Below, piece after piece: positions 6,001 to 58,289 of a stretch of DNA of 64,000 nucleotides. Within the stretch, counting starts at the first letter, position 1; every line of letters starts with the position of its first letter. The stretch is from an uncultured Elusimicrobia bacterium. Lineage in GTDB: Bacteria > Elusimicrobiota > Elusimicrobia > 2-01-FULL-59-12. A model generated the notes under the pieces. The model was not told where the DNA came from. It saw nothing but the letters and a program-made list of their open reading frames with translations, and ran no database searches. Both the position numbers and the translations under genes were made by a program. The DNA lies in contig CAYTWA010000002.1 in the NCBI GenBank assembly GCA_964441955.1, positions 9,894-73,893 on the forward strand. The letters are read 5' to 3'.

Positions 6001-9000
6001 AGCGTGCGCGAGCCGAAGCAGCGCTTCAAGCCCGACTAAGCCAGATCCAAGATCAGTTGGCGCGCCAGCAGACGCTCGCGCAGGAGATGACGCTCCAAAT
6101 AGCCGCCTCTGAGAAAGAGCGCGAAAGTTTGGAAAAAGCGTCGCGCCAAAACGGGTCCAATTGGAAAGCGCAGCAGGCCGCTATTCAGACGCAACTGGAC
6201 GCCTACCGCGAACAGATTCGGGGGCTTGAAACGGAGCTTGCGGCCCGCCAAACAGATTTAAAGGATGTCCATGCGTCCTTAGCCGCCGCGCAAGCGGACC
6301 GGCAAGCGTTAATCGAGTCGCTCCAAACGCACAAGCAAGGGTTTAGTCTCGAGCGAAGCGCTCTCGAATCGCTCATGGAAAAGACCGTCACCGATTCTAC
6401 TCACGCCATGGACGTCTTACGTGCAAGGCTGGTAGAGGCGGAGAAGCAGGTGGCCGTTCACCTGAATGCGCTAGATGACCAGCGCTCACGCGTCGTGCAG
6501 TTGGAAGCGCGGCTTAAGGAATCTGAACAACGCCGTGTCTCTATAGAACAATTGGGAGCGACCCAGTTGGCCGAAGCCGAAAAATGCCGCCGCGATCTTG
6601 AAACGCGACTGAGCGCGGAACGCGACCGCGCCGGCCTCATGGAGACGAAACACGCAACTCAAGTGTCGGAGTTGAAAGAATTGCACAACGCGCTCGCCTC
6701 CGCGCGCCAGGAGCGCGAAACGCTTCTTGAAACATTGTCGGCTCAGCGTGAAAAAGCGACTGCCGACTTGATGGCTCAGCAAAAAATGCTTCAGACTGCG
6801 GAGTCCGAAGCGCGTCGGCAGACGCAGGCCCTTGAAAAAGAATGGCGGGATCGTTTAGCGGCGGCCTCCGCTCAATCCACGGATCGGATTACGGCGCTTC
6901 AAGCGCAGGTCACGCAACTTGAGCAAACATTGACCCAAGAGAGACACCAGGTCGAAAAACGGCTTGCGGCTCTGGTGGAGGAACGATATCAAGCCGAAGC
7001 AGCCCTCCAGGACCGCTTAACGGCCTTAAGCGAAAATTTAGCGCGTCAGCAAACGATGGCTCAAGAAATGGCGCTTAAACTAGCGGCCTCCGAGAAGGAG
7101 CGAGAAAGTCAGGAAAAAGCCGCCCGCATGGCGGGGTCCGATTGGAAAACACAACAAACCGCATTCCAAACGCAATTGGAAGGTCAACGCGACCACGTTC
7201 GGCAATTGGAAAAACAGCTGACGTCGCGTGAACACGATTTAAAAGAAGTTCAAGCCGCGTTGTCGGCGGTTCAAAAAGACCGTCAAATTCTAACGGAAAA
7301 GCTCGAATCGCAAAGACAAGGATTTGAGCTAGAACGGGCGGCCTTGGAAGTGAAGTTGGCGGAAGGACAAAAAGCCGCCAGCCAAGCCATCGCCAAACTC
7401 GAATCGCAGTGGCGCCAAAGGCTCGATACGGCCGCGGAGGAATCCACCCAAACGGTGGAAGCGCTGCGCCAACGAATCGTGGAAATTGAGCAGAAATGGG
7501 GCGAGCGGAATGCGGCGCTGGAAAAAGATTGGCGCGAGCGCTTAAGCGCCTCGGGCGTCCAATACACCGAACGCCTTGCCGGTCTTCGCTCGCAAATGGC
7601 TTCCTTAGAGGCGGCGCACCGAGACCAAACAGCCTCCTTAGAACAGGCGCTGGCAGCTCAGAAAGCCGATTTTGAAAAACGCATCACCGTTTTCCAGCAA
7701 GAGCGCACTAAAGAAGAATCGATTCTTCGGGAGCGTTTAATGTCGCTGCAAGACAAGGCCGGCCATAAAGAGGCGGACTTGTCCGCGCTGGCGAAGGATC
7801 TCGAAGGAGAGCTTGCAGCCGCCCGCCAGGAACGGGATGCATTGGCCAGTGAGCTTACGCTTCAGAGGGAAGAATCCGTCAAAGCCCTTCGTGCGGCCGA
7901 GGGCACCGCCAAAACTCTCGAAAGCCAGTGGCGCTCTCGTTTGGACGCCTTGGACAAATCGGCTCAAGAACGGGTCGCGCGCGTCACGACCGAAGCGGCT
8001 GAACGGCTGGAGGCCTTTGAAGCGCGCGTGGAAGAATTAGAAAAGCGTCTTGCCTCCGAGCGCAGTGATTTTCAAAAACGTTTAGAAGCCCAAACCGCTC
8101 AAGCCGAACGTGTCCAAGCCCCCCTGCAGCAGCGGTTGATCGAATTGGAGCGCGCCGTGGCCGAGCGCTCGGGCTCTCTTAAGGCCGTCCAAGAAAAGCT
8201 GTCGCGCTTAGAAGAGGCCAAGGCGCGCCTTGAAAAGACCGCGGCGACCGACGCCGCTCAGGCCGCCCGGACCTACCGGCAGATGGAAGAGCGTTTGGCC
8301 GCCGAAGGCGGTCGTGCGGAAGCGTTGGTCGGCCAGATTCAGGCGCATCAGCTGCAAATCAAGGAATTAGACGCCGTTTTATCCGCGGTGCGTGAAGAGC
8401 GTCAAGCCTTAAGTGAATCGCTCGAAGCGCAGCGCCAGAAATTTATGGCTGATATGAAGGACCAAGGGCAATCCCTCAGCCAGCGTGAGCGCATGGTCGC
8501 TCAGCAAATCCATGAATTGGAGAAGGAATACACTCAGCGCTTGAGCCAGCAGGAAAAAGATTTCAAATCGCAAAGCGAAGCGCTTCATGAACGGGCCCGT
8601 GCGCTGGAAGCGGACTTGGCCCGCCGGGAATCGGCCGCGCAAGCGATCGAAAAACAATTGCGCCGGGAATACGAAGCGCGCCTCCATGAAGAACGGGAAA
8701 AAGCGCGCAAACTTCAGACCGACTTGGCCGCGCTTAGTTCTTCCGTGAGCGACTTGGAAAGCCGCTGTGCCACTCTTCAGGGCCAGAAGGAAACCAACGA
8801 CGACCATTTCGAGCAGGAACGATTTCGATTTGCCGATCAAATAAAAGGTCTCGAAACGCGCCTTAAGGAACAAAAAGCGGAATCCAAACGGACAGTAGAG
8901 GCGTTGGAACTTGAACTTCGTTCCCAATCCGCGGGTGTTTCAAAGGAATCGGTCGACCGTCTGGAAAATGTCCAGCGCCGGGTGCGCGAGTTGGAGCAGC

Positions 9001-10028
9001 TTATGGACCGAAAGGATACTGAAATCGGCGTGCTTCGGGAACAAATGGACCATTTAGAAAAAGCCTCGGCTCATCGTGAGAAGGAAATGGTTCGTACTCA
9101 TGCGAAGGAATTAGAAGAAATGCAAAGCCGCTTCCTAGGCAAGATGAAAGAGATCCGCGCGGAGTCCGAGGAAGCCTTACGCCGCGTGCAAAATGAGTAT
9201 TTATCGCAAGAGTCTGTGGCAAGCCCGGATTTGCGTGGAATGGAAGAACGCCGAGTTTTAGAAGCAAAGCTTCGGGAGGCTCAAGCGGAACTGGAACAAG
9301 CGAAAGTCCGCGAGCCCGCACGCCTAGCGGATGCCGGAGTGTCCAAATCCTTGATGGAAGAATGGGTGTTTGGTTTTGCCCATCAAGTCCGCAACCCCCT
9401 AGGCATTATCCGAAGTGTTGCCGAATCGTTGAAATGCCAGGTGGCGCTCAGCCGCGGTGGTGGTGAGGCCATCGACGCCATTTTGAAGGCGGTCGATGGG
9501 TTAAATGGACGCCTTAAAGAATTTATCGAATTCTCCAAACCGGTTAAACCCTTCTGCCAAGCCTTGGATGTACGAACCACGGTGGAAAAAGCCTCTTCCG
9601 GGCTGCGCGAGCGAATGAAGCGGCAGCGGGTGGACTTCAAAATGGACATTCCACACAATTGTCCGACTCTGCCTTTGGACCCCGATCACATGCAAACGAT
9701 TTTGGTCAATTTGATGAGCAATGCCTTGGATGCCATGCCCGATGGCGGTAAACTGCGCGTGGAAGCGCGTTACGCGCCCTCAGGCGGAAAGCTGGAGCTG
9801 CGCGTTCAAGACACAGGCCGGGGAATTCCCAAAGAACATATGAAGGAAGTGGGTCGTCCGTTTTTCTCCACGAAACCGGGTGCCGTCGGTTTGGGGCTTG
9901 CTCTCGTCAAACGCCTGCTTCGCGCTTATCACGGCGACGTGGTGGTCGAAAGCAAACCTAACCAAGGCACGACGGTCCTATGCCGGCTCCAGGTTCTTGA
10001 TAAAGGAGAAACCGCATGGGCCGCGTAA
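1..10028 (+). CDS. Giant coiled-coil sensor histidine kinase (5' partial; >3,340 aa). About 3,100 aa of heptad-rich, SMC/myosin-tail-like coiled coil followed by HisKA (H-box FAHQVRNPL) and HATPase_c (N-box LVNLMSNALDA, G1 DTGRGIP, G2 GLGLALV)
   Basis: ORF 102..10028 continues in frame without a stop to base 3 (translated by hand upstream of the first ATG), so it is 5'-truncated. The C-terminal ~230 aa show canonical histidine-kinase motifs. The rest is E/Q/R/K/L/A-rich repeats with no TM segment. Confidence 0.85.
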   Translation, partial: GALQSVHSLQDLNARLKGEIQDYLHREKALNERMIRLQQELNDSYSRLDQHTSIDRDREAAAREALRQEIILEQNAKWQTEIDALRQSVQNWNEVRRQKETELRMIKEALLQKEAEVFALQKEKISSEEKAHRDLVEAISKARSGVQMAIDEVVRSKDHDIQNLKNELAQGPIELDRRLQQIEQDYRRKEQNLLHQFRERQQALELDWTQREKELWEQVSRSRQTLEAELKKQWENRTQELERSFDQRRSFLENQTQQKEHLMDQRLSARENELLSVWAAKESALVQDWARKEKALAEQFQKALDEERQSAMAEIARVKKESETWRAAQEETWHSREIEFKKAQSETEDMLRDSFRHREEDLLAKHQDALGKSQKQISDLLARASEKDTQARVAMEKLAMVVKERDALSERLESTTRDSQQRLMMVEQQLKTRERELQQLTQRLASEVEVREAHIQNLTRKNTAQESDVKVLQEKIERAEIDRDASQKKAVELETDFMARRQSLEQAYQTEMSSLRERLTVLSQTTSQKEQTYQRRVAELETDLLERVSQAQTLSDQLSVARTDFQELLQTSTTRDDRLASIERELANALEEVRSLTHHLKRQEEVRDELQSKNEALQGQLREETQRFEERLAHAGHEADMMRGRLEQRVVELEGLFRQKSTDAQTLQIRLNEAMQAFKTLESVSSERQTELSARLQALEQASNAEKEAFDVQLQGLRQKDLALQQSLEARIRELETDIARRAAVQADLQGQVQSLQETRQDISERSAAREAQLLDEVHDLKNKIQVQKEQLTSRVLGLERERHQTEEALHAKALELEQRLGQKSTTLKTVQDELSKAHETTEQLGKRLTTVEAHLQRAEGQLKAKETELHALINASHKQAAETQETYQRRLLDLQNQKLKLETDLKGVQDLLARTESARVAIEKDAALLETQRLSQVQKLEERLVAQERAHEERFAHADQAAQTMRGQLEKRILDVEGQLRQKMTDLQTLESRLKEAVDERKSFETASDTRKTQLSKEVDELKEKVKFQKEQLASRVMGLERERHQIEDALQAKILELEQSGSQKTTAIKTLQEQLTKARERSEQMEKRLSTVEAHLQRAEGQLKAKETELHSLISSSHKELNESQETYQRRILELQNNKLKLETDLKSLQESLARADGLRASLEKEAAQRERTWRAAEGEWKGAAEAKQKEAGLQQTALTKRIDELENQVRQKTVELQTFEARLSVAEDQRTAFEKDVQAGRSQIVAMQKQILDLKTGLQERESELKENHQSLLSLQKERQTLLDSLEAERKGVALERQAWEFTAAQTDQARQKENAAFEDRLLALQQERAQVERTLQKQVTDLQETLTLRVADLEDAKQQLQTTLQERLAFDKAVGVRTSEALQRHDELEKRYFAERDKAQLAETTLAAQVSELQSLQAELSAIREERQTLISQLASERQKSQTDLRAAANDHVERAEALQKRIQNLEINLGAERSQFEQRMAAVQKDRAEKEETLHRRLLELQDVASGRAAEIQGLKQRLHEAEQARFSLEKTTGEQLGKAQQSQTDLEKRFFAERGRAEQAESQLAAQLSEIKELKEAVASARQDRETLLKTLSEQREKAMSDLSALQKAAQTSEQEARRQMHVLEKEWRDRLNAAAAQSAERVATLQSQVTVLEKAQVAEKADFEKRLALFVEERARAEEALQTRLISLQEGLARQQTLATELTQKLDASEKTRDILEKLSRQTGEEWKADRQALAQQLNAQREQIVRLEKQLSAREENVQDIQQALAQAQKDRQALTESLQHAKVSFDLERTGLESHFERSSETLRFKFMEAQKQTAAQALMLEEQRARLMQLEERLKDSEQRRSMMEKAGTLQSTEAENRRLDLETHLRAERERSGHMETRLTAQVSELKELKEALAAARQERESVLVTLASQRDKASQDLADQQKALQTSEADSRRQIQALEKEWKERLSAASTHASERIDALQAQVAQLEQTLSRERHDYEVRLAGLVDERARAEAALQARLSQIQDQLARQQTLAQEMTLQIAASEKERESLEKASRQNGSNWKAQQAAIQTQLDAYREQIRGLETELAARQTDLKDVHASLAAAQADRQALIESLQTHKQGFSLERSALESLMEKTVTDSTHAMDVLRARLVEAEKQVAVHLNALDDQRSRVVQLEARLKESEQRRVSIEQLGATQLAEAEKCRRDLETRLSAERDRAGLMETKHATQVSELKELHNALASARQERETLLETLSAQREKATADLMAQQKMLQTAESEARRQTQALEKEWRDRLAAASAQSTDRITALQAQVTQLEQTLTQERHQVEKRLAALVEERYQAEAALQDRLTALSENLARQQTMAQEMALKLAASEKERESQEKAARMAGSDWKTQQTAFQTQLEGQRDHVRQLEKQLTSREHDLKEVQAALSAVQKDRQILTEKLESQRQGFELERAALEVKLAEGQKAASQAIAKLESQWRQRLDTAAEESTQTVEALRQRIVEIEQKWGERNAALEKDWRERLSASGVQYTERLAGLRSQMASLEAAHRDQTASLEQALAAQKADFEKRITVFQQERTKEESILRERLMSLQDKAGHKEADLSALAKDLEGELAAARQERDALASELTLQREESVKALRAAEGTAKTLESQWRSRLDALDKSAQERVARVTTEAAERLEAFEARVEELEKRLASERSDFQKRLEAQTAQAERVQAPLQQRLIELERAVAERSGSLKAVQEKLSRLEEAKARLEKTAATDAAQAARTYRQMEERLAAEGGRAEALVGQIQAHQLQIKELDAVLSAVREERQALSESLEAQRQKFMADMKDQGQSLSQRERMVAQQIHELEKEYTQRLSQQEKDFKSQSEALHERARALEADLARRESAAQAIEKQLRREYEARLHEEREKARKLQTDLAALSSSVSDLESRCATLQGQKETNDDHFEQERFRFADQIKGLETRLKEQKAESKRTVEALELELRSQSAGVSKESVDRLENVQRRVRELEQLMDRKDTEIGVLREQMDHLEKASAHREKEMVRTHAKELEEMQSRFLGKMKEIRAESEEALRRVQNEYLSQESVASPDLRGMEERRVLEAKLREAQAELEQAKVREPARLADAGVSKSLMEEWVFGFAHQVRNPLGIIRSVAESLKCQVALSRGGGEAIDAILKAVDGLNGRLKEFIEFSKPVKPFCQALDVRTTVEKASSGLRERMKRQRVDFKMDIPHNCPTLPLDPDHMQTILVNLMSNALDAMPDGGKLRVEARYAPSGGKLELRVQDTGRGIPKEHMKEVGRPFFSTKPGAVGLGLALVKRLLRAYHGDVVVESKPNQGTTVLCRLQVLDKGETAWAA
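1880..3500 (+). repeat. Second intragenic repeat pair (~410-nt conserved block QKEQL.SRV.GLERERHQ.E.AL.AK.LELEQ...TVEAHLQRAEGQLKAKETELH..I..SHK...E.QETYQRR.L.LQN.KLKLETDLK) at ~2350-2760 and ~3080-3490. A weaker ERF..HA..MRG.LE match lies at ~1880 and ~2860.
   Basis: Near-identical peptide blocks read in the translation of the giant ORF. Confidence 0.55.
4640..7380 (+). repeat. Three tandem intragenic repeats of ~960-980 nt (~325 aa). Conserved blocks LTAQVSELKELKEAL...ASQRDKAS.DL..QQK.LQTSE...RRQ.QALEKEW..RL.AAS...ER..ALQAQV.QLEQTL..ER
   Basis: Protein-level self-similarity read directly from the translation. Copies start near nt 4670, 5630 and 6610, with ~60-70% aa identity. Confidence 0.7.
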
Positions 10029-14849: not shown

Positions 14850-15641
14850 TTAGGAAGGATTCGAAATTTCGGCGTCGGATAACGACGGGAAGGTGAGGGT
14901 GACGGTGGTTCCTATTTTGGGGATGCTTTGGAACTGGGTTTGCGCGTGGTGCTGTTCGATGATGCGTGCGGCGAAGAAAAGCCCGAGGCCCACCCCGCCT
15001 GGTTTTGTGGTTTTAAAAAGGGTTTTCCCGGGCTTTGGGAGTTTAAGGCCCGGCCCGGTATCCCTAATGAGAATTTGGACGGACCCCTTATTCGTCACCT
15101 GCGTCGACAACGTCAGTGTTCCGCCGGGAGTCATGGCCTCGATGGCGTTGACCGCGTAATTAAGGACCGCCTGTTCTAAGAGCTCCGCTTGAAAGAAAAC
15201 GTCCGGGAGTTTGGCTTCTTGGTGTTTTTCAAAGTGCAGACCTTTACGTTTGCAAAGTTCCTCCGCGTAGTCGGCCGCCGCGTTGACCACCGGGTTGATG
15301 GATCCGCAGTTCATCGGCGGTTGTTCCCCTTTGGCATAAAGCAGTAAATGGCTGACGATGCGCGAAAGCTTTCCGGCGCTTCGTTCAATCAAATCCAACG
15401 GCTGACGCTGCTCCGGGAGCAGTCCTTTTTGCCCCCGCAGTAATTCGGTGGTCGTTTGAATGGTTTGAAGCGGGGAGCGGAATTGGTGAACGAAGCCAGC
15501 CACCATCCGCCCGAGTGTCTTCCATTTTTCAACTTCAAGAGCAGCGGCAGAGGGAGTGAGAGTCAAGGTAGATTTCTTTTTAAAAAAAATTCCTTGACAC
15601 CCTCTCCCTCTGCCCTTGCTCTTCACGGTGTGATTGCCCAT
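14850..15641 (-). CDS. Soluble, sensorless histidine kinase: HisKA (FVHQFRSPL) + HATPase_c (N-box AVNAIEAMTPGG, G1 IRDTGPGL, G2 GGVGLGLFFA). The N-terminus contains an in-frame palindromic element.
   Basis: Motifs are present in the translation. The start ATG at 15639-15641 overlaps the stop of the upstream cNMP-patatin gene by 1 nt. Confidence 0.8.
   Translation of the reverse strand: MGNHTVKSKGRGRGCQGIFFKKKSTLTLTPSAAALEVEKWKTLGRMVAGFVHQFRSPLQTIQTTTELLRGQKGLLPEQRQPLDLIERSAGKLSRIVSHLLLYAKGEQPPMNCGSINPVVNAAADYAEELCKRKGLHFEKHQEAKLPDVFFQAELLEQAVLNYAVNAIEAMTPGGTLTLSTQVTNKGSVQILIRDTGPGLKLPKPGKTLFKTTKPGGVGLGLFFAARIIEQHHAQTQFQSIPKIGTTVTLTFPSLSDAEISNPS
15547..15613. repeat. Palindromic element copy A: arms GCAGAGGGAGTGAGAGTCAAGG / CCTTGACACCCTCTCCCTCTGC, core TTTCTTTTTAAAAAAAA. 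Lies in-frame within the 5' end of the small HK gene on the - strand (encodes KSKGRGRGCQGIFFKKKSTLTLTPSAAA).
   Basis: 22-bp imperfect inverted repeat. No stop codons in the HK frame. Confidence 0.75.
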
Positions 15642-21004: not shown

Positions 21005-21694
21005 ATGACGATTTTCTGGCGTTTAATTCTTGCGCATTTCATCGCAGACTTCACGCTGCAGACGAACAAGGTCGCGGAGTGGAAGCGTGTCAGCCAAATG
21101 GGCATGGGCGTGCATGTGATCGCCCATCCGCTCATGTCGATGCTGCTCGCGTGGCCCTTTTTGGGGGACATCTGGGTCACCCTCGGGCAGACGCCGCTTA
21201 CGGGCTGGGCGTGTGTTGGGATCATCACCTTGATCCACTGGGTGGAAGATGAATTTCGAATTTGGGCGATCCGAAAAGAAATTGTGGCGGACGGCAGCGC
21301 TTTTTTAGCCTGGGATCAAGCGGTGCATTTAGGAAGCATTTATTTGTTTTCCCCCGCGCGGTCCGGGGGGCCAGGCGAGGTGTGGGTGCTCGTGGCACTC
21401 TGCGCGGTGCTTTTAACCCATGTAACGTCGGTCGTCATTTATTTCTTGGAGACAGATTCCGGGACGGAATCCGCCGTTTTAGGTCCGGGCAAATACCGCT
21501 TGATGGCGGAGCGCTTAATGGGGGGTATTTTGGTGTCTTTGCCCGGCTATTTCACGACTTTTGGATTCGTTTGGGTGGCCGCCCAACTCTACCGCCAAAC
21601 CACCCGCCGCTCACCCCGCACCTGGGTACACACTCTAACCACCTGCACAGCGGTTCTCGTCTTAGGCCTTATCGCTCGAAAAATCCTTTTTTAA
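21005..21694 (+). CDS. Polytopic membrane protein, DUF3307-like (N-terminal LAHFIADFTLQ motif)
   Basis: Hydrophobic ORF with an HxxxDFxLQ N-terminal motif. Weak family assignment from memory. Confidence 0.5.
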   Translation: MTIFWRLILAHFIADFTLQTNKVAEWKRVSQMGMGVHVIAHPLMSMLLAWPFLGDIWVTLGQTPLTGWACVGIITLIHWVEDEFRIWAIRKEIVADGSAFLAWDQAVHLGSIYLFSPARSGGPGEVWVLVALCAVLLTHVTSVVIYFLETDSGTESAVLGPGKYRLMAERLMGGILVSLPGYFTTFGFVWVAAQLYRQTTRRSPRTWVHTLTTCTAVLVLGLIARKILF

Positions 21695-21732: not shown

Positions 21733-21807
21733 GGGCCCTTCGTTCAATGGATAGGACGCCGCCCTGCGAAGGCGGCAATGGCAGTTCGACTCTGCCAGGG
21801 CCCACCA
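21733..21807 (+). tRNA. tRNA, 75 nt with encoded CCA. Cloverleaf folds cleanly (acceptor GGGCCCU/AGGGCCC, T-arm GGCAG-UUCGACU-CUGCC). The anticodon loop CUGCGAA gives anticodon GCG (Arg, decoding CGC/CGU).
   Basis: Hand-folded from the sequence. All four stems pair (D-stem GUUC/GGAC, anticodon stem CCGCC/GGCGG), with U33 and A37 present. Confidence 0.7.
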
Positions 21808-21822
21808 CTTTCTCGTCGATTT

Positions 21823-22189
21823 GGGGCTGAATAGGATCGACAGGGTTGGACAGAATGGACGGTCGCAAGCCGTGGTTGGTCGGACCCACGCTAAAAATCG
21901 GCTAAATCATAACTGGCGAACCTCTCGCCCTCGCTGCCTAAACCGTAGCGAGTCCGGGCCTTTGGCCCGGCGTTCTCCCCGACCTCACCGGTGGGCGGGT
22001 CAAGAGCGTCATCATGCCGGTTAGGACGTCCGAGCGCGCCTTCGTGCGGACGTGCGAACCGCTTCAAGGCTCGTCCTTATGAAAGGGGTCTGCAGCTGAA
22101 ATAAGGACTAAAACCAATAGCAGACTACGCTTGTAGTGACGCTGTTCGGCTAACTTTGGACCCGGGTGCAATTCCCGGCAGCTCCACCA
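21823..22189 (+). ncRNA. ssrA: tmRNA (SsrA), ~367 nt. 5' GGGGCUGAAUAGGAUCGACAGGG..., 3' ...GGACCCGGGUGCAAUUCCCGGCAGCUCCACCA. The internal tag reading frame ends ...GEPLALAA-UAA.
   Basis: Conserved tmRNA 5' and 3' tRNA-like ends with encoded CCA, and a tag ORF ending in the canonical ALAA stop. Confidence 0.85.
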
Positions 22190-25633: not shown

Positions 25634-26743
25634 ATGAGAAGCATGTCAAAAATAAGCATGGCGGCGATGGTGGCCGTTGCAGGGACGTTCGCGCTCTCCG
25701 CCACGGCCAAGGCCGACGGGCCGACGCTGGGCGGTTATGTGCAAGGTTCCTACCAAAAGAATCTCAATAAGCCAAAAACCTCAGCCGGTGCCCCAACGGG
25801 GAATCAGCTGCGGGTGTTCGACCAGAATCAATCCGATGATTTTGGTTTAAACGCGGTTCAACTGAAACTGAGCAAATCCATCGGGGACGAAAACTACGGG
25901 TACGGGGTAAAGTTGTTGGCGGGCGATGATGCGCGCATTCTAAACGGCAACGGAACCTACTCCACATCGAATGACCAGTTCTACGTGGAAGAGGCGTACG
26001 GAATGTTTTCGCTTTCCAATCTCAAAGCCTTGACCGTTACCGGCGGCCGGTTTGTCACGGCGGAAGGGGTGGAAGTCATCGAGTCTCCGCTCAACATGAA
26101 CATCTCCGAAGGCTTGTTGTTTGGATATGCGGAGCCGTTTACGCACACGGGCGTTAAGGCCAACTATGTGGTAAGCGACATGGCCAACGTGACCGCAGGC
26201 ATCGTCAATGGGTGGGACAATTCCAATACCTACTTAGACAACAACCGCGGCAAAACGATCATCTACCAGGTGGCGACGACACCGGCCAAAGGGTTGATTG
26301 CCAACCTCTCAGGCACGTACGGTCCCGAAGCCTCCAATCAAACGCACCAAAAGCGTACCTCCGTCGATTTGGTGTTAGGCTATACGGGCATTGAAAAACT
26401 CACCATCAACGGTCAATTGAACTGGGGCCAAGACAAACAGAAGAATACTTCAACCAATGTGTGGAAGGGTGCGGGTCTTTGGTTGGGTTATGCGGTGAGC
26501 GACTGGATCAACCCGGCCGTTCGCTACGAAGTGTTCAGTGACCAGCATGGGGGGAGTCGTACCGCCACCGCTCAGACGGTCAACAACTTCACCCTGACCA
26601 ACAAGTTCCAAGTGGCCAAAAACATGTTCCTTCGTGCCGAGTACCGACACGACTGGTCGAACATGCCCGCCTTCCAGAACAAGGTCGGCAATGCCGTTCG
26701 AGTGCAAAACACCATTGGCGCAGACTGGGTCGTGACGTTCTAA
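25634..26743 (+). CDS. Outer-membrane beta-barrel porin (signal peptide ...ALSATAKA, alternating amphipathic strands, C-terminal ...DWVVTF)
   Basis: Signal peptide and C-terminal aromatic residue typical of OMPs. Confidence 0.65.
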   Translation: MRSMSKISMAAMVAVAGTFALSATAKADGPTLGGYVQGSYQKNLNKPKTSAGAPTGNQLRVFDQNQSDDFGLNAVQLKLSKSIGDENYGYGVKLLAGDDARILNGNGTYSTSNDQFYVEEAYGMFSLSNLKALTVTGGRFVTAEGVEVIESPLNMNISEGLLFGYAEPFTHTGVKANYVVSDMANVTAGIVNGWDNSNTYLDNNRGKTIIYQVATTPAKGLIANLSGTYGPEASNQTHQKRTSVDLVLGYTGIEKLTINGQLNWGQDKQKNTSTNVWKGAGLWLGYAVSDWINPAVRYEVFSDQHGGSRTATAQTVNNFTLTNKFQVAKNMFLRAEYRHDWSNMPAFQNKVGNAVRVQNTIGADWVVTF

Positions 26744-36653: not shown

Positions 36654-36966
36654 AAAAAGATCAGCGGCGGGTGGCCAGCGAGGCGGGAATGGCCAGTACG
36701 GCCGCGTTAGGAACTCTGTTTAAATAAATCACCATTCGCCGTCGTTTTGGCCATTCCCGCCGTATGGGTCCCCCGCTTTTGACGGCCGTGACCATGATCG
36801 TTTTGGAACTCTTTAGAGGGACGGGCCCGCAGGAACCCTGCTTGAATTGAGCAACCATTGCCGTTTGAGGGTTTACGGCGTGGTCGTGATCCAAGCGTTT
36901 GATCATCGAAAGTGGAACCTAGGGAAAATATTCCCGGGGACTGGGTCTGATAAAATAGCGGCCTGG

Positions 36967-39900: not shown

Positions 39901-40197
39901 GGAGAGCTTCGATTTTCTCCGGCGCCCGTTTTAGCCGGATGGTTGTTTGAGGCAAAGCCTGTCGATGGGTTTGAAAAAGACACCTTCGGATTCAAAGTGT
40001 TCGGCGGAACATGGATCGTGTACCGAAACCCAGGCCGGCGCGACACCTATGCGGGAAAAGGGCTGGCTCCTAGCAGCTACCGGTTAGTCGCGCGGGATGG
40101 CCGAGAAGAGGTTGTCGAAGGCCGCTTTTTAAACGGCCGTTTGGCGCACGATTTGCGCGAGGGCCGGCTGGCGCGTGTCACCATTCATTTGGCATGA
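36967..40197 (+). CDS. Large (~1,076 aa) uncharacterised cytoplasmic protein. Possibly a six-hairpin glycoside hydrolase/phosphorylase-like enzyme (low-confidence guess).
   Basis: Start reassigned to ATG 36967 (the track ORF from 36847 spans a 300-nt leader). No motif was recognised with confidence. Confidence 0.5.
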   Translation: MKPKFHLKHDAFVIENYHASRPFAGFLPGIAGEYGKPMWVFTTNRGQGISSFGIRNKNAAMLEFYPANKAYTMTPITGFRTFVRLQEGKKVSINEPFRPHALESVRQVMRVRPHELEIEEVNHANRIEIRVVYFTAPNETLPLLVRRVTVKNLASKTRRMDILDGLPQVVPFGLSEFLLKSMSRTMEAFSETLHTDEHLPFFKMKVEPSDRPEMERIDGGFFAFTLQNRQPIRLAVDAQGVFGADTSFGYPSVWAASGRLSRHEQTESTTACAFACLSFALPAQGEQTFTSYFGQANHWEEALALRRRVQESAAYAETKRAENAATLQQLTDPFAIHSSQKRLDPYSRQAFLDNTLRGGQPRVDKTHGHASVFHYYTRKHGDMERDYNAFEVAPTYFSQGNGNFRDVNQNRRCEPFLFPGVGADSLQTFFNLIQLDGFNPLVIQYETFVVRPEKLNSLKTLLDHLGWDSWKLFLTQPFKPGVLYERLWTGHGQVQESAQESFERILTVAEKTQEAAHGEGFWVDHWIYNLDLLESFAAVYPDQLKAVLTEAHSSTYFDNDHVVQPRQRKTILRHDGRVRQMNAVIRDTEKASLLKARKTDPFKVRTQYGEGEIYRTSLLAKLVGLFAVKAASLDPFGVGLEMEADKPGWCDALNGLPGLFGSSVNEALALRRGVGFLQERLPSLLSDRETLQLPVEVADFVRDVKDALSGASGPLFYRTWDALSSRKEAFRERTRLGVSGEEAVLSLKDLQAFLGSVQQTLDRGLLHAVTKDGLVTTYYINEVDEYEKLPPIHSDASGTEAKSLQAVRAMRFKQTPVVPFLEGPMHALRLASPQEARALYSAVRGSSLYDKKLGMYRLNTPLDSESFEIGRAKIFTPGWLENESIFLHMHYKFLLETLRSGLHAEFFKDFKKGLVAFQDPAVYGRSVYENSSFIASSRFPDARLHGNGFVARLSGATAEWISMVIYMGLGAKPFEWVKGELRFSPAPVLAGWLFEAKPVDGFEKDTFGFKVFGGTWIVYRNPGRRDTYAGKGLAPSSYRLVARDGREEVVEGRFLNGRLAHDLREGRLARVTIHLA

Positions 40198-41354
40198 GGC
40201 GGTGGCAGCGTTTCGGTATTCTTTTTTTGCCCCTTTTTTTTCCGCTTGCTTTGCTTCAGGCGCAAAAAGAGGTTCCTGTTTTGCGTGCGTATTATGAAGA
40301 AACCCTCTATATCGCGATTGCCCAAGCGGCTCGGCTCCTGAAAGGGGCCGTGTCATGGCGGGCGACGTCGGAGCAGGTGGAACTTCGCGTGCGCGGCCAT
40401 TCTTTTCGTTTTTTTTATGATTCCCCGCTCGTGTTGGTGGATGGAAAGCGAAAAATGCTGGAACGTCAAACGATTAATAATGCAGAAGGCTTTTGGGTTC
40501 CGGCACGCTTTTTTGCGGATGACGCGTTTTTTGCGCTGACCCATGCGAGGCTGGAGTTGCCTACAAAAGCAGTGGGAGAGGGAGTGGGAGTTAAGGAAGT
40601 CTTTATTAAAAAAGGAAATACCTCGACTGCCACTCCCTCTCCCTCTGCCGTGTCTTCACGCGCGATTCGCCGCATCGTCATTGACCCCGGCCATGGGGGA
40701 AAAGACCCGGGCGCCGAAGGGCCGCGCGGAGTGTTCGAAAAAAGTATCACCTTGGCGTTAAGCCAAGAAACCGCCGAGTTGCTTCGCGAAAAAGGCGATT
40801 ACGAAGTACTCATGACGCGCATGGACGACACCTTTGTCCCGCTCGCCGAGCGCGCCCGTTTAGCCAACCGTCACGAGGCGGATTTGTTTATTTCCATTCA
40901 TTGCAACGCGTCCACGTCGTCAAAACTTCAAGGGTTTGAGGTGTATTTCCTCTCCGAAAAAGCTTCCGACCCGCGCGCGGACGCCGCCGCGCGTTTTGAA
41001 AACGCGCCGCTTGCCTTGGAAGGACAAAGCGTCCCCGCCCCGAACCCGCTCAATCGCGTGCTTCGCTCATTAGTGAAAACAGCTAACATCAACGAATCAT
41101 CGGAGATGGGCGCTCTCCTGCATCAAAAATTAAGCCGTCAAATTTCGAGTGAAGCACTTGGCGTCAAGCAGGCGTCGTTTTATGTGCTGCGCGGCGCAGA
41201 AATGCCATCGGTGTTAATTGAGGTCGGATTTTTGACGAACCCCCGCGAAGAAAAAATGCTGACCAAGCCGGCTTACCGGCACAAAATTGCCCAAGGCATC
41301 TTCGAAGCGGTTCAAGCGTATGACTTACGCAAACAAAAGGCGCGCGGCCGATGA
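40194..41354 (+). CDS. N-acetylmuramoyl-L-alanine amidase, AmiC-like (N-terminal AMIN domain + Amidase_3 catalytic domain: IDPGHGG...EADLFISIHCNA). The linker carries an in-frame palindromic element.
   Basis: Amidase_3 motifs present. ATGA overlap with the upstream gene. Confidence 0.8.
   Translation: MRRWQRFGILFLPLFFPLALLQAQKEVPVLRAYYEETLYIAIAQAARLLKGAVSWRATSEQVELRVRGHSFRFFYDSPLVLVDGKRKMLERQTINNAEGFWVPARFFADDAFFALTHARLELPTKAVGEGVGVKEVFIKKGNTSTATPSPSAVSSRAIRRIVIDPGHGGKDPGAEGPRGVFEKSITLALSQETAELLREKGDYEVLMTRMDDTFVPLAERARLANRHEADLFISIHCNASTSSKLQGFEVYFLSEKASDPRADAAARFENAPLALEGQSVPAPNPLNRVLRSLVKTANINESSEMGALLHQKLSRQISSEALGVKQASFYVLRGAEMPSVLIEVGFLTNPREEKMLTKPAYRHKIAQGIFEAVQAYDLRKQKARGR
40569..40648. 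repeat. Palindromic element copy B: arms GCAGTGGGAGAGGGAGTGGGAGT / ACTGCCACTCCCTCTCCCTCTGC, core TTTATTAAAAAA. Lies in-frame inside the amidase ORF (encodes AVGEGVGVKEVFIKKGNTSTATPSPSA).
   Basis: 23-bp near-perfect inverted repeat. Translated in the frame of ORF 40194..41354 without stops. Confidence 0.8.
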
Positions 41355-52567: not shown

Positions 52568-53185
52568 TTGCGTGTTCTTTGGACTTTTCTTTTTTGGGCC
52601 TCCATCGCCTATGCCAAGAGCAGTTCCTCATCACCCATCGTTCGTTCGCAAAATGGTACCGAAAGCATTGGTTGGAGCGAGGCCGGGTGCGCGTGGGAAG
52701 TTTCGAGCACCGGGCCATCCAACTTAAAAGTCAGTGTTCAGTCCGAAGCCTGCGATCCCGCCGCGGCGGACGTTCAAGGGGCCTTGGTTCAAAACGTCTA
52801 TCGATTGATGGGCAAACGGGTGGGAAAAGCGGGACTGACTTTCGATATTTATTTACCGCACAGCCCGACACTTTTAACGCGGTGGGGGGTTATCCTCAAG
52901 AGTTCCGACGAATGGGAAAAAAGACGAACCTCCCCTCAATCGTCGGTCATTTCGGATAACGAATTCTTCTCAAAACTCATGGATCAAGGCCAGCTCTTTG
53001 GCGCGTATCAGTCGCTTTTTGACAAACTGGGAGGCCTCTATGAAACAGTTGAGATTGACAAGGTCGTCTACCCGCCCGCCGGTGATTTTTCCTTTTACGA
53101 GACGGCGCTTAAAATTCGCGGCTATGGGCCTCAGGACGCCTTTCCCATCCCTTTGGTAACCCATATCAAACTTATTTCGCGCTAA
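52568..53185 (+). CDS. Secreted hypothetical protein (signal peptide MRVLWTFLFWASIAYA)
   Basis: ORF plus signal peptide. 5 nt downstream of pilT. Confidence 0.5.
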   Translation: MRVLWTFLFWASIAYAKSSSSSPIVRSQNGTESIGWSEAGCAWEVSSTGPSNLKVSVQSEACDPAAADVQGALVQNVYRLMGKRVGKAGLTFDIYLPHSPTLLTRWGVILKSSDEWEKRRTSPQSSVISDNEFFSKLMDQGQLFGAYQSLFDKLGGLYETVEIDKVVYPPAGDFSFYETALKIRGYGPQDAFPIPLVTHIKLISR

Positions 53186-53290
53186 AACCGCATGGAAAGG
53201 CACTTTTGTTTACAATCGCGCCATGTCCCGTAACTCCATGAAATCAATTCGGCGGGACATACCGGATATGAAATTGAAAAAAGGAACCGT

Positions 53291-54691
53291 ATGACTTTAA
53301 TTCATCGCACCAAAATTATCGGGACATTAGGCCCGGCAACCGAACAGCCGGGCGTATTAGAAAAGCTTTTGGAAGCCGGCATGGATGTAGTCCGCATCAA
53401 TGCCGCGCACGGCAATGAAGCGATCCATGGCGCCCGATTGGCGAAGGCCCGTGAAGCCGCCCAGCGGATGGGCGTTCCACTGGCAGCCCTCCTTGACCTT
53501 CCTGGCCCCAAACATCGCCTGGGGGTCTTGCGTGAACCCTCGCTGCGAATGCGTGCCGGGGATGAAATTTCCCTTGGAGGGTCTTCCGAAGGGGCCCTTC
53601 CATTAGAAGAGCCCCATTTGGTCAAAGACCTGCGCCCGAAAGAACCGATTTATTTAGCCGACGGCAGCGTGCGCCTTATCGTGCTGCGCGTGTCGGGTTC
53701 CCAGGCGCTCTGTCGGGTGGACATTGGCGGCATCGTGCGCTCGCACTCAGGGTTAAATTTGCCGGAGTCCCAACTGTCGCTTCGCCTTCCGACACTGGAA
53801 GACCGGCGGTGGATTCAATTTGGTTGCGAGCAGCGCATCGACTGGTTTGGAATTTCTTTTGTTCGAAACGCCGAAGACGTGGTCCGCGTGCGCAAGGCGC
53901 TGACCCCCATGTCGGACCCTCCCTTGCTCATGGCCAAAATTGAAAAGCGCGATGCCCTGACGAATTTAGGCGCCGTGATCGCGGCCGCCGATGGCGTCAT
54001 GGTGGCGCGCGGCGATTTAGGAGTGGAAACGCCGCTTGAGCAAGTGCCGCTCGCACAAAAAAGGATCATCGCGGAAGCCACTCGCCAAGGAAAACCCGTC
54101 GTGACCGCGACTCAGATGCTGGAATCAATGGTCGAAAACCCATCCCCGACCCGCGCGGAGGTGACCGATATTGCCAACGCTATATTGGATGGGACGGATG
54201 CGATCATGCTTTCGGCGGAAACGGCGATTGGCAAAAACGGCCCACGGGCGGTTAAAACCATGACCGCCATTATTGGCGCCACGGAAGCCCAATACCCGCA
54301 TGCCAAAATGCTGGAGCGTCTTTCAAAAACCTCTTGGGGTTCTACCGCGGATGCGCTAAGTTTGTCGATTGCCCGGCTTTCATTTGATCTAGGAAAACAT
54401 AGTGTCATTGTGGTGTCGGCAGAGGCGGCCACAAGCGCCTATCGCATTGCGCGGTTTCGCCCCAGCGCTCCGATCTATGTGCTAAGCCCCAATCCACGTC
54501 ATGCCCAACGGTTTAATTTGGTTTGGAACGTGCGCCCGCTCGTGATGACGAATGCCTCAGACCCCGTGGCCGTTCGCCGAAAGCTCAAATCTTTGGGCGA
54601 AATCAAAGCCGGGTCGCCGATCATTTTCATTTCCACCAACCCCCGCCAAAGCGCCGATACCACCGATACGCTGCGAATATTGCGTTTATAG
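53291..54691 (+). CDS. pyk: Pyruvate kinase
   Basis: TKIIGTLGPA..., MVARGDLG. Confidence 0.9.
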   Translation: MTLIHRTKIIGTLGPATEQPGVLEKLLEAGMDVVRINAAHGNEAIHGARLAKAREAAQRMGVPLAALLDLPGPKHRLGVLREPSLRMRAGDEISLGGSSEGALPLEEPHLVKDLRPKEPIYLADGSVRLIVLRVSGSQALCRVDIGGIVRSHSGLNLPESQLSLRLPTLEDRRWIQFGCEQRIDWFGISFVRNAEDVVRVRKALTPMSDPPLLMAKIEKRDALTNLGAVIAAADGVMVARGDLGVETPLEQVPLAQKRIIAEATRQGKPVVTATQMLESMVENPSPTRAEVTDIANAILDGTDAIMLSAETAIGKNGPRAVKTMTAIIGATEAQYPHAKMLERLSKTSWGSTADALSLSIARLSFDLGKHSVIVVSAEAATSAYRIARFRPSAPIYVLSPNPRHAQRFNLVWNVRPLVMTNASDPVAVRRKLKSLGEIKAGSPIIFISTNPRQSADTTDTLRILRL

Positions 54692-54699
54692 GATTTAAA

Positions 54700-54741
54700 A
54701 TAGTTATTGACTTAGTCCATATTCAAGACTAGACTAAGTCC
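54700..54741 (+). promoter_or_regulatory. Putative vapBC promoter/operator: TTGACT -17 bp- TAGACT with overlapping ACTTAGTCCA / ACTAAGTCCA repeat and GACTAG palindrome
   Basis: Read in the intergenic sequence 5' of the antitoxin gene. Confidence 0.35.
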
Positions 54742-54975
54742 ATGAAAGTGAATATTCATGAAGCCAAAACCCACTTTTCCAAGCTGATTGAAAAAGTCGA
54801 AGGTGGAGAAGAGATTATTATCGCTCGGGGCGGGAAACCAGTGGCCAAATTAGTGGGGCTAGGGGGTGCCAAAGCGTTGCGACAGCCCGGAACCGCTCGG
54901 CATGATTCGGTCTTTGTGTCGGAGGATTTTGATGCCCCGCTTCCAGATGATGTACTTCGTGATTTTCATTCGTGA
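54742..54975 (+). CDS. vapB: Type II antitoxin (Phd/YefM or VapB-like)
   Basis: 77 aa, MKVNIHEAKTHFSKLIEKVEGGEEIII.. antitoxin-like N-terminus. Overlaps the toxin by 4 nt. Confidence 0.75.
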   Translation: MKVNIHEAKTHFSKLIEKVEGGEEIIIARGGKPVAKLVGLGGAKALRQPGTARHDSVFVSEDFDAPLPDDVLRDFHS

Positions 54976-55361
54976 ATTATCTTCTTGATACCCATGTTTT
55001 TATCTGGTGGATCACTGGCGAATCTCGGCTTCCCCAGACCGTGCAAAAAGTCTTAAGTGAAGCGGCCGGGTCCGTCTGGGTTAGCGCCGCCAGCCTTTGG
55101 GAAATGGCCTTAAAAATAAAGCTCGGAAAACTCAAAATGCCCGAGCCGTTCGACACGTATGTTTTGCGACAGATTCAGATCAACCGAATGGAAGTCCTGC
55201 CTATCCATGCGCCCCACGTGCTTGAAACGATGAAGCTCCCAGCCCACCACCGCGATCCTTTCGACCGACTCTTGGTCGCCCAAGCACGCCGGGAAGAGCT
55301 AACTCTTATTAGCGGCGACTCAGCCATGCGTTCATATGATGTAGCGATCTTATGGGGCTGA
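54972..55361 (+). CDS. vapC: PIN-domain ribonuclease toxin VapC
   Basis: LLDTHVFIWW (first acidic residue) and other PIN motifs. Confidence 0.85.
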   Translation: MNYLLDTHVFIWWITGESRLPQTVQKVLSEAAGSVWVSAASLWEMALKIKLGKLKMPEPFDTYVLRQIQINRMEVLPIHAPHVLETMKLPAHHRDPFDRLLVAQARREELTLISGDSAMRSYDVAILWG

Positions 55362-56009: not shown

Positions 56010-57086
56010 ATGGCTTCTTTAGAACATTTACGTCGTCAAATTGACCGCCTGGATGGCGCGCTTTTGGAACTATTAAACAAGCGCGGCCGCCTGGTCCAGC
56101 AAGTCGGCGCCGAAAAGGCGCGCAGGAACCAGTCCGTTTTCGCTCCCGGACGTGAACGGGATCTTCTCAGGCGGCTGAAAGATTTAAACCACGGGCCGCT
56201 GACCGCCGAGGCGGTCGATGCGGTGTTTCGCGAAGTCGTTTATGCCTGCCGCGCGCTTCAGAAAGATTTTAAGATCGCCTATTTCGGCCCGGAAGCGACC
56301 TTCACGCACCAAGCCGCCCTTCGGCAGTTCGGCCGCCGGGCGCACCTCGTGGCTTGCCGTACGATTTCCGATGTCTTTGTGGAAGTGGAAAAAGACCGGG
56401 CCGATTACGGGGTTGTCCCCATCGAAAATTCCACGGAAGGCATCGTGAACCACACGCTTGATATGTTTGTCGATTCGCGTTTGTCGATCTCAGCCGAGTT
56501 GGAGATGCCGATTCACCACTATCTCCTGGGCCGCGCCGTAGGCTACAAGAAAGGCCGCGGGGTTCGAACCCTTTATGTTTTTCCACAGGCCCTGGCCCAG
56601 TGCCGCGCCTGGGTCGAAGCTCATGTGCCTCACGCCAATGTTGTGGAAGCCTCTTCGACCGCCGAATCGGCACGCCTGGCGTCGAAAACACGGGGTGCGG
56701 CGGCGATTGCCTCGCGACTGGCGGCCGAGATGTACGGGTTAGATGTTTTAGAGTCGCGTATCGAAGATGTGTCCAGCAATTTCACGCGTTTCTTGGTGAT
56801 TGGAAAAAGCGAGCCGGCGCCTACCGGGCGTGATAAAACCACGGTGATGTTCTCCGTCAAAGATCGCGTGGGCGCCCTGCACGATATTTTGGTGCCGTTT
56901 AAGAAGTTGCGCTTAAACCTCACCAAAATCGAATCGCGTCCGACCCGGCAGCGCGCTTGGGAATACGTTTTCTTCGTTGACATCCTCGGCCACCGGGCCG
57001 AGCCGCGCATGCAAAAGGCTTTAGCGGAACTTGAGCGTTACTGCAGCTTTCTTAAAATTTTAGGGTCTTACCCTCGGACAGAATAG
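56010..57086 (+). CDS. pheA: Bifunctional chorismate mutase / prephenate dehydratase (CM_2 + PDT + ACT)
   Basis: Start at ATG 56010 (the track ORF 55656.. is over-extended across pgeF). ESRP and TRF motifs. Confidence 0.9.
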   Translation: MASLEHLRRQIDRLDGALLELLNKRGRLVQQVGAEKARRNQSVFAPGRERDLLRRLKDLNHGPLTAEAVDAVFREVVYACRALQKDFKIAYFGPEATFTHQAALRQFGRRAHLVACRTISDVFVEVEKDRADYGVVPIENSTEGIVNHTLDMFVDSRLSISAELEMPIHHYLLGRAVGYKKGRGVRTLYVFPQALAQCRAWVEAHVPHANVVEASSTAESARLASKTRGAAAIASRLAAEMYGLDVLESRIEDVSSNFTRFLVIGKSEPAPTGRDKTTVMFSVKDRVGALHDILVPFKKLRLNLTKIESRPTRQRAWEYVFFVDILGHRAEPRMQKALAELERYCSFLKILGSYPRTE

Positions 57087-57160
57087 AGAGGGGAAGGGAG
57101 TGGGAGTTCAGGAAATTTTTATTAAAAAAACATTCCTCGACTCCCACTCCCTCTACCACT
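57087..57160. repeat. Palindromic element copy C (intergenic): arms AGGGAGTGGGAGT (57095-57107) / ACTCCCACTCCCT (57140-57152) around an AT-rich core TTTTTATTAAAAAAA, followed by TGTTTTTT. Terminator-like.
   Basis: Perfect 13-bp inverted repeat read in the sequence. Related copies at 15547-15613 and 40569-40648. Confidence 0.8.
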
Positions 57161-57167
57161 GTTTTTT

Positions 57168-58289
57168 ATGAACCCACTCGATAATCTCATCCGTCCCCAA
57201 GTGCGCGGTTTTGAGCCGTACTTGCCCGGACGCTCCATTGAAAGCGTGAAGCGTGAGCGCGGTTTAAAGCGCGTCATTAAATTGGCGTCCAATGAAAATG
57301 CGCTCGGGCCCTCGCCCCAAGCCATTCGCGCGATGAAGGCGACCGGCCCACAGCTTTTTCGCTATCCCGATGGCGCGAGCACGCGGCTGCGCGCGGCCCT
57401 AGCTCAGAACGCCAACGTGCCAGCGGAGCGGGTCATCATCGGCGCGGGGAGTGATGAGCTGATCGAAATTTTGGGAAAAACGTACCTCAACCCCACGGAT
57501 TCGATGGTTGTTTCCGCGCACGCCTTCACGCGCTACAAAATGGCGGGGGATTTGATGGGTTCCGAAGTGATCACTGTTCCCATGAAGGACTACCGCCACG
57601 ACCTTTCGGCGATGAGCAGGGCCATTCAAGCCAATACCAAACTGGTTTTCGTGGCCAATCCCAATAACCCCACCGGGACTTACAACACGGCGGCCGAATT
57701 GGAAACTTTTTTATCCCGTATCGCGACGATGGCCAATGCCCATCCACTGGTTGTCGTAGACGAGGCGTATTACGAGTACGCCAAAGCCTTTGCGCCGGAT
57801 TATCCGGATACGTTAGCACTTCAGAAGCGGTTTAACTTTCTTGTCACCTTGCGAACCTTTTCCAAAGCCCATGCGTTGGCGGGGCTTCGTATTGGGTACG
57901 GGTTTGCTGACCCGTCCGTCATTGAGGCGTTAGACCGAGTTCGCCCGCCGTTTAACGTCAGTGTGGCGGCCCAAGCGGCCGGTGTAGCCAGTTTGACGGA
58001 TACGACGCACATCCGCAAGAGCATTGCCTTGGTGGCTGCTGAGCGCAAGAAGATCCTCCGGGCGGTGACGGCTTTGGGCTACCGGGTACTGCCTTCGGTG
58101 GGTAATTTTTTCCTCATGGTGGTGGCTCCCAGGGGGGGAAAAGACGTAACGGAAGCTCTTCTTTCTCGTGGTATTATTGTCCGCTCGATGCAGGAATATG
58201 ACTTTCCGAACCACGTGCGGGTGACCTACGGGTTACCGGCCGAAAACGCGGCCTTTATCAAAGCCTTGACGGAGATTGCGAAGCGATGA
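57168..58289 (+). CDS. hisC: Histidinol-phosphate / aromatic aminotransferase (class II PLP)
   Basis: [12 protein letters not shown]..., PLP-lysine region ...[15 protein letters not shown]. Confidence 0.9.

Follow-up and report, generated by a model that had tools for sequence, protein, structure and literature searches.

The window analyzed here, a 64,000-nt stretch of DNA (64 kb) from an uncultured Elusimicrobia bacterium, carries housekeeping genes, among them a mur/ddl/fts cluster, pheA-hisC-aroF, and tmRNA, and the homologues of the proteins flanking the elements described below were named as Elusimicrobia or Elusimicrobiota. The window also contains a giant ORF of 3308 residues (102-10028) and, at 21733-22189, a tRNA-Arg(GCG) gene followed directly by the tmRNA, which has the tag peptide GEPLALAA. 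Three related palindromic sequences, designated copies A, B, and C, were present where the original prediction had placed them. Copies A and B lie inside ORFs, as had been proposed for the copies other than C, and are in frame, and copy C lies between pheA and hisC. The elements and their host or neighboring genes are as follows:

14850-15641, minus strand: stand-alone histidine kinase of 263 residues (HisKA from residue 43, HATPase_c), the host gene of copy A
15530-15630, minus strand (the orientation that aligns best with B and C on the plus strand): copy A, with arms of 49 nt that are 76% complementary
40194-41354, plus strand: N-acetylmuramoyl-L-alanine amidase of 386 residues (Cu_amine_oxidN1-like N-domain, linker, Amidase_3), the host gene of copy B
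40565-40652 (about), plus strand: copy B, from its inverted repeat, fold, and nhmmer profile
56010-57086, plus strand: pheA (chorismate mutase / prephenate dehydratase / ACT), upstream neighbor of copy C
57080-57166, plus strand: copy C, from its inverted repeat, fold, and nhmmer profile
57168-58289, plus strand: hisC-like aminotransferase, the gene downstream of copy C

Sequence relationship and folding of the three copies

All three copies are elements of 85-100 bp, and their arms, which are 28-49 nt long and 74-86% complementary, reach the element ends. The intervals originally given for them (15547-15613, 40569-40648, and 57087-57160) were correct in position but too narrow at the ends, because the inverted repeats reach farther out. 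Each arm consists of approximately three tandem GGGAGN hexamers; the arms form a purine-rich and pyrimidine-rich inverted pair, and a single arm has no internal dyad and cannot pair with itself. The end sequence of the family is GCAGNGGNAGAGGGAG, and 8 nt directly outside the right arm (TCTTCACG) are common to A and B. Inside the arms, the inner stem (TYAAGGAA / TTCCTYGAC) and the AT-rich core are conserved along with the arms themselves. The GC content of the core is 15-23%, against 55% for the window, a background that had been put at 60%. The expectation that the arms flank a common AT-rich core was borne out, but not with one exact core sequence: TTTATTAAAAAA is confined to B and C, and the core of A is TTTCTTTTTAAAAAAAA. 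The pairwise identity of the copies was 71-78% over approximately 87 columns (with A on the minus strand) and 78-87% over the inner 70 columns, where the B-C pair accounted for the value of 87%. The reading frames that pass through the copies are those of the host ORFs only.

The arm motif AGGGAGTGGGAGT, with up to two mismatches allowed, was observed nine times in the window against 0.71 expected, and the full two-arm pattern (26 fixed bases) occurred three times in the window and in none of 100 shuffles. An nhmmer profile built from the three copies matched the A, B, and C sites with E-values of ~1e-24 and found no fourth site within the 64-kb window. As judged from these alignments and counts, A, B, and C are homologous members of one dispersed repeat family rather than independent GC hairpins, which agrees with the original view that they constitute one family and not a set of independent terminators.

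The RNA folds of the three copies had free energies of -41 to -54 kcal/mol and z-scores of -6.2 to -8.1, and none of 200 shuffled sequences was as stable, so that the folding check recommended with the prediction had a clear outcome. The values were -46.6 and -53.7 kcal/mol for A (z -6.6 and -7.8), -51.4 kcal/mol for B (z -8.1), and -40.9 kcal/mol for C (z -6.2). The stems comprise 30-40 bp and are AT-rich in their upper part, and the stem of A keeps the mismatches T-T, A-C, and A-A. A few outer-stem pairs vary on both sides across the copies, but three sequences are too few for a statistical test of covariation. A sliding-window scan gave other 90-nt stretches of high stability, which were rejected as further elements, as their stability was a composition effect (z 0 to -1.8). 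The sole other stretch that folded clearly below its shuffles (25650-25760, z -3.55) is the 5' end of an ORF at 25634-26743, directly after a P-II gene. Separately, an imperfect inverted repeat at 36667-36776, with 40-nt arms that are 73% complementary and contain GGCGGGAATGGCC / GGCCATTCCCGCC, lies between a DUF2062 gene and an ORF of 1116 residues and is unrelated to the A/B/C family.

Inverted hexamer arrays flanking an AT-rich core are an iteron- or operator-like layout, and the GGGAGN arrays, which are inverted around an AT-rich, bendable center, raise the question of whether a dimeric or multimeric DNA-binding protein recognizes the palindromes, which would then have an operator, nucleoid-organizing, or partition-like function. 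We regard this as highly improbable, given that two of the three copies are within coding sequence, the host genes are functionally unrelated, other sequences occupy the same sites in relatives (see below), and no candidate binding protein was found. An attC or CRISPR-like reading was dropped, as neither an integrase nor an array nor conserved R/L boxes were present.

To place the family more widely, GTDB representative genomes were scanned with the strict two-arm pattern, and JGI metagenomes and IMG/VR were scanned with a looser pattern (26 fixed bases). Four matches to the strict pattern in the GTDB representatives were unrelated GC hairpins without an AT core and were rejected; at the pattern stringency used, no copy of the A/B/C family was found in the GTDB representatives, the JGI metagenomes, or IMG/VR. 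When the three-copy nhmmer profile was run over 0.95 Mb of related loci, the sole matches were the copies of the window as present in other assemblies (L005, L006, and L008), and two low-coverage assemblies, ENA ERZ3430527 and Logan SRR7369924, contained copies A and C with the same profile scores as those of the window. A six-frame concatenated peptide search against 5.8 billion proteins returned only the window's own kinase; because even an identical 27-mer scores just 46 bits, this search has low power and is not evidence of absence. The matches listed in a metagenome scan seeded with the amidase alignment were mostly distant amidases. In Rfam, with the gathering and E-value thresholds, the elements had only sub-threshold matches to miRNA precursors, that is, to generic long hairpins. 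A full-text literature search for palindromic repeats in Elusimicrobia gave no paper on the subject, the matches listed being on other topics. We conclude that the A/B/C family is real and previously undescribed and that its behavior is like that of known in-frame palindromic elements.

Copies A and B in the reading frames of their host genes

Copy B encodes, in frame, residues ~126-152 of the amidase (AVGEGVGVKEVFIKKGNTSTATPSPSA), a peptide of approximately 27 residues that makes up nearly all of the short, family-variable interdomain linker. The N-terminal domain and Amidase_3 are in one frame, and both align with orthologues at 47-63% identity. On the evidence of these alignments, copy B is read through in frame from the conserved N-terminal domain into Amidase_3. 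In an AlphaFold2 model of the amidase, pLDDT values were 80-96 in the N-terminal domain and below 50 at residues 126-153, where no secondary structure was modeled; this was the sole such internal interdomain stretch. The peptide encoded by copy B is therefore predicted from the model to be a disordered linker segment, and the element occupies a structurally permissive position between two confidently folded domains.

Copy A encodes residues ~6-35 of the kinase ORF (VKSKGRGRGCQGIFFKKKSTLTLTPSAAAL). The product of this ORF is identical to a publicly called protein (P0121), which starts at the ATG at 15641, and this ATG shares nucleotides with the stop codon of the preceding patatin/cNMP-binding gene (TAATG). 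Translation could also begin in frame at a GTG (codon 6) or at a TTG (codon 26, within the element); with initiation at Met46, the HisKA helix would be shorter than in every homologue. Given these alternatives, what the element overlaps is either coding sequence or the region of translation initiation. The kinases of highest similarity (30-41% identity) are likewise short proteins, and their N-terminal tails differ in length and sequence. Copy A is thus in frame in a variable, permissive N-terminal tail, with the true start codon of the kinase uncertain. The peptides of A and B are in the same frame across the core and second arm, where they share the pattern (I/V)F(F/I)KK...T.T.TPS..A. The upstream ORF was considered as the sensor half of a split kinase, and this was ruled out by its identity as a patatin/cNMP-binding protein. 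Meanwhile, the N-terminal tail of the closest stand-alone kinase homologue, P0242 (NNRRRGGGRGRVFSTTSTTSSIS), is loosely like the copy A peptide GRGRGCQGIFFKKKSTLTLTPS, and it may be another element-derived tail.

Copy C and the corresponding sites in related genomes

The spacer between pheA and hisC is 81 nt long in the window and consists almost wholly of copy C. The pheA stop codon (TAG, 57084-57086) is part of the stem base of C, which extends to 2 nt upstream of the hisC ATG (57168). A T-tract is present at 57162-57167, and the ATG is at most 3 nt past it. The relatives lacking the insert, with which a comparison had been suggested, provided an informative contrast: the C-terminus of PheA is conserved (LKILGSYPRxE*), and hisC starts after 2 nt in L095 and after 0 nt in L096, so that the sites are empty and the gap is 0-2 nt. 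The aligned junctions show that copy C is an insertion relative to these two relatives.

Copy C had been described as lying directly after the pheA stop codon and as being followed by a T-tract, both of which are the case, and on this basis it had been considered a probable terminator. That role is doubtful. In intrinsic terminators, a short GC-rich stem-loop is followed directly by a U-tract at the end of a transcription unit; here, the stems are 30-40 bp long with an AT-rich upper part, a T-tract is present only at C, and C is located between pheA and hisC, with A and B inside ORFs. The terminator scan made no call at the copy C site. As pheA and hisC abut in the relatives, they are taken to form an operon, and as the hisC ATG is at most 3 nt past the T-tract, there is no space for a promoter. 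Transcripts presumably read through C rather than terminate there. The idea that hairpin C places a Shine-Dalgarno sequence beside the hisC ATG was likewise dropped, since only ~7 of 24 window genes have SD-like motifs.

In two further relatives, L092 (JGI Ga0183872_10867984) and L093 (Logan SRR29476932), the pheA-hisC junction is occupied by other palindromes. L092, with 71% identity in HisC, has a spacer of 104 nt that starts at the stop codon and contains a palindrome whose arms, GAGGTCGAGGGGGAAGTCGTGGTCGT and its complement, are 26 nt long and whose center is AT-rich (z -3.7). L093, with 72% identity in HisC, has a spacer of 109 nt with arms of GTGATTAG repeats (z -2.1), and the stop codon is within the stem base. 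The amidase linker showed a similar picture. The linker fold was -47.6 kcal/mol in L094 (z -5.35), the linkers of L009 (z -4.3) and L020 (z -2.9, with an A-rich core) also formed hairpins, and that of L011 contained the dyad GGGGTCCCATCAAC / GTTGATGGATCCCC, whereas in L012 the hairpin was lost (z -0.3). In all five orthologues tested, the linker was the most stable 90-nt window of the whole amidase gene. These sister-lineage palindromes at sites B and C can be aligned neither with the window family nor with one another. Every palindrome seen in the relatives was a singleton built on a short tandem unit of its own (GNGGTC, GTGATTAG, and TCGGA-type).

Palindromes of this kind were also present elsewhere in the same relatives. 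In L093, an in-frame palindrome at 4224-4317 (approximately -44 kcal/mol, with TCGGA-type repeat arms) lies in the conserved ParB N-domain and adds approximately 33 residues (AISDVGVGNSNLKERRQSTVHSNPRSEVRNPKF) between PIVVR and SYELISGERR. In L092, a palindrome at 21012-21104, with 34-nt arms and a free energy of -53.5 kcal/mol, spans the initial ~35 codons of a gene for an SBP_bac_5 solute-binding protein, and the palindrome is unrelated in sequence to the window family. No such elements were found in 21 kb each of the more distant relatives L095 and L096. The linker of one NCBI amidase orthologue, P0022, reads IPAKAGIHDAPKNVVMDPRLRGDDK, which we take to be the peptide typically encoded by another palindromic repeat, the widespread GGGAATG...CATTCCC type; if this assignment is right, the linker would be a further independent palindrome at the same place.

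The occurrence of unrelated palindromes at the same two sites in sister lineages suggests that the sites have long been occupied and that the sequence family of the window is young. Because B and C are 87% alike in the window, their common sequence would be much younger than the occupation of the sites, and a young sequence at old sites implies replacement, homogenization, or re-insertion. The picture of a simple one-off insertion is therefore incomplete. In HisC, the three genomes whose site C is occupied are most similar to one another (71-75%), which fits an old occupation of the site but is not decisive, as L095 is nearly as close (70% to L092 and L093). We suggest, tentatively and with low confidence, that a long hairpin was already present at the amidase linker and at the pheA/hisC junction when the lineages with ~72% identity in HisC split and has persisted there, and that the sequence of the hairpin is lineage-specific and, in the window genome, common to several loci. 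If this is true, either the hairpins have been overwritten or homogenized, by structure-targeted insertion or concerted evolution, or the fold itself is selected, for example because it keeps the stop and start codons adjacent; in either case, palindromes inside and between essential genes would be turning over in a way that has been little documented.

Selection of this kind would make the hairpins cis-regulatory elements retained for their shape, as an attenuator or terminator, an mRNA stabilizer, a processing site, or, at C, a bridge between stop and start codons for translational coupling. Hairpins do persist at two loci across lineages that are ~72% identical in HisC, with the sequence fully turned over. 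At the junction, the stop codon lies within the stem base of C, whose end is 2 nt upstream of the ATG, the stop codon of L093 is also in a stem base, and a T-tract follows C. The variation of a few outer-stem pairs on both sides among the copies points in the same direction, but with n=3 it has no power to establish covariation. However, no T-tract follows A or B, both of which are located within ORFs whose functions are unrelated, and no call was made at C by the terminator scan. A terminator at C, between two genes that adjoin directly in relatives, would also leave hisC and aroF cut off. The amidase linker of L012 has no hairpin, L095 and L096 need no spacer, and bridging through a Shine-Dalgarno sequence is unsupported, most window genes being without such motifs. 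Taken together, we judge a cis-regulatory function of the hairpins to be unlikely.

Origin of the family and comparison with known palindromic elements

We consider it probable that A, B, and C belong to a lineage-specific, non-autonomous palindromic repeat family, similar to RPEs (Rickettsia palindromic elements) or MITEs, that survives at permissive sites. Under this interpretation, copies would be spread or homogenized between loci by trans-acting transposition or gene conversion and would persist only where the harm is small: B would be kept as a disordered, in-frame peptide of approximately 27 residues in an interdomain linker, A in a variable N-terminal tail, and C as a fold-out spacer between two translationally adjacent genes. 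We infer that the family is mobile and that its status is selfish or neutral. Several observations stand against this interpretation. There are just three copies in the 64-kb window, the GTDB, JGI, and IMG/VR scans and the 0.95 Mb of related loci yielded none beyond the window's own, and no transposase or RAYT was found among the window ORFs scanned. The check for target-site duplications proposed with the prediction yielded none that were convincing; the best flanking direct repeats were 4-5 nt long, with inconsistent offsets and at chance level for the boundaries tried. Such duplications may have decayed if the insertions are old. Furthermore, the unrelated palindromes at sites B and C in sister lineages would imply selection for a hairpin or replacement by conversion, rather than simple insertion.

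Palindromes can also arise without transposition, as fold-back or template-switch replication errors (quasipalindrome correction) are a source of palindromes and a means of their upkeep. In this case, such errors would have created and re-perfected the palindromes in situ, at permissive sites or sites of low complexity, and the three of the window would then have been homogenized by ectopic gene conversion. The unrelated palindromes at the amidase linker in L094, L009, L011, and L020 and in the pheA-hisC spacer of L092 and L093 are consistent with this origin, as is the observation that the palindromes seen in the relatives are singletons, each with a different short tandem unit. The lack of target-site duplications, and of a transposase among the window ORFs scanned, would also be accounted for, and the TCTTCACG common to A and B beyond the right arm could be a co-converted flank. 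However, conversion between 90-bp tracts at unrelated loci requires prior similarity, the arms, inner stem, and loop are common to all three copies, for which copying from one source is the simplest explanation, and the T-T, A-C, and A-A mismatches in the stem of A have been left uncorrected. An origin in situ is thus rather unlikely in our estimation, and we retain a dispersed, non-autonomous repeat family as the preferred interpretation.

Among known systems, RPEs are the closest in behavior. Many of their copies are inserted in frame into housekeeping ORFs that have no relation to one another, and the extra peptide translated from them falls at structurally permissive positions (PMC10969869). 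Like RPEs, A, B, and C form a dispersed family of short palindromic repeats, with B in a disordered linker and A in a variable tail. They differ in host (Elusimicrobiota as opposed to Alphaproteobacteria), in size (85-100 bp as opposed to ~100-150 bp), in arms made of tandem GGGAGN hexamers, and in number, with three copies in the 64-kb window. Because of the different phylum and arm motif, homology to RPE families is unlikely; the likeness, which was assessed from published descriptions, would be one of behavior, and we propose that the elements work like RPEs, not that they are members of them.

Bacterial MITEs, including SPRITE of Streptococcus pneumoniae, fold into stable hairpins, are located in intergenic or 3' regions, and can resemble terminators (PMC10969869). 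A, B, and C resemble them in being small (below the limit of ~500 bp), multi-copy, and without a transposase of their own, and in having terminal inverted repeats; C with its T-tract is also terminator-like. Unlike in MITEs, the whole element is palindromic, as opposed to short terminal inverted repeats around unique DNA, and no target-site duplications and no parent IS or transposase were seen, the latter among the window ORFs scanned. In addition, unlike in MITEs such as SPRITE, two of the three copies are in ORFs, and A and B have no T-tract.

REP elements consist of a 5' GT(A/G)G tetranucleotide followed by their own short imperfect palindrome and are almost exclusively extragenic, and a REPIN is formed by two inverted units (PMC3686654). 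In related strains, orthologous contexts can hold REPs of different classes (PMC3686654; bioRxiv 10.1101/2024.10.14.618302), which parallels the lineage-specific palindromes at sites B and C, and REP/REPIN families are likewise genome-specific. In contrast, the arms of A, B, and C have no dyad of their own and do not constitute REP units, A and B are inside ORFs rather than extragenic, and no gene for a RAYT, the Y1 transposase associated with REPs, was found among the window ORFs scanned. PARCELs are coding DNA with dyad symmetry that encodes a peptide module of ~25 residues (PMC2996958), and the coding DNA of A and B shares the dyad symmetry and a similar peptide length. However, PARCELs are arranged in tandem within ORFs of unknown function for membrane or surface proteins and encode an amphipathic motif, whereas A, B, and C are single, dispersed, and located in housekeeping genes or between genes, and the peptide of B is predicted to be disordered.

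In-frame palindromic repeats are best documented in Rickettsia, and the same behavior is now seen in free-living, uncultivated Elusimicrobiota. This suggests that the evolution of linkers and tails and the creation of operon spacers by palindromes are broader than has been recognized, as exemplified by the amidase linker, the kinase tail, and the ParB N-domain in relatives. The occurrence of unrelated palindromes at the same two sites in sister lineages offers a testable case for distinguishing recurrent insertion, concerted evolution, and structural selection, and is the aspect most worth following up. Such repeats also have practical consequences in that they break short-read assemblies, distort gene calls, and inflate the "novel peptide" content of metagenomic protein catalogues.

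Two further features were noted in the comparison with relatives. Between a pilT-like ATPase gene and a Cu-oxidase_4 gene, the window shows a local synteny break (52568-55361) relative to L092, L095, and L096, with extra genes in the form of an unassigned 205-residue ORF and the genes for pyruvate kinase and a PIN-domain protein. In L093, a perfect 30-nt inverted repeat with a 1-nt loop (2723-2783; AGGGGACGTTGTTGCTTTGTTGCCTTTTTT and its complement) lies between convergent genes and is probably a bidirectional terminator.
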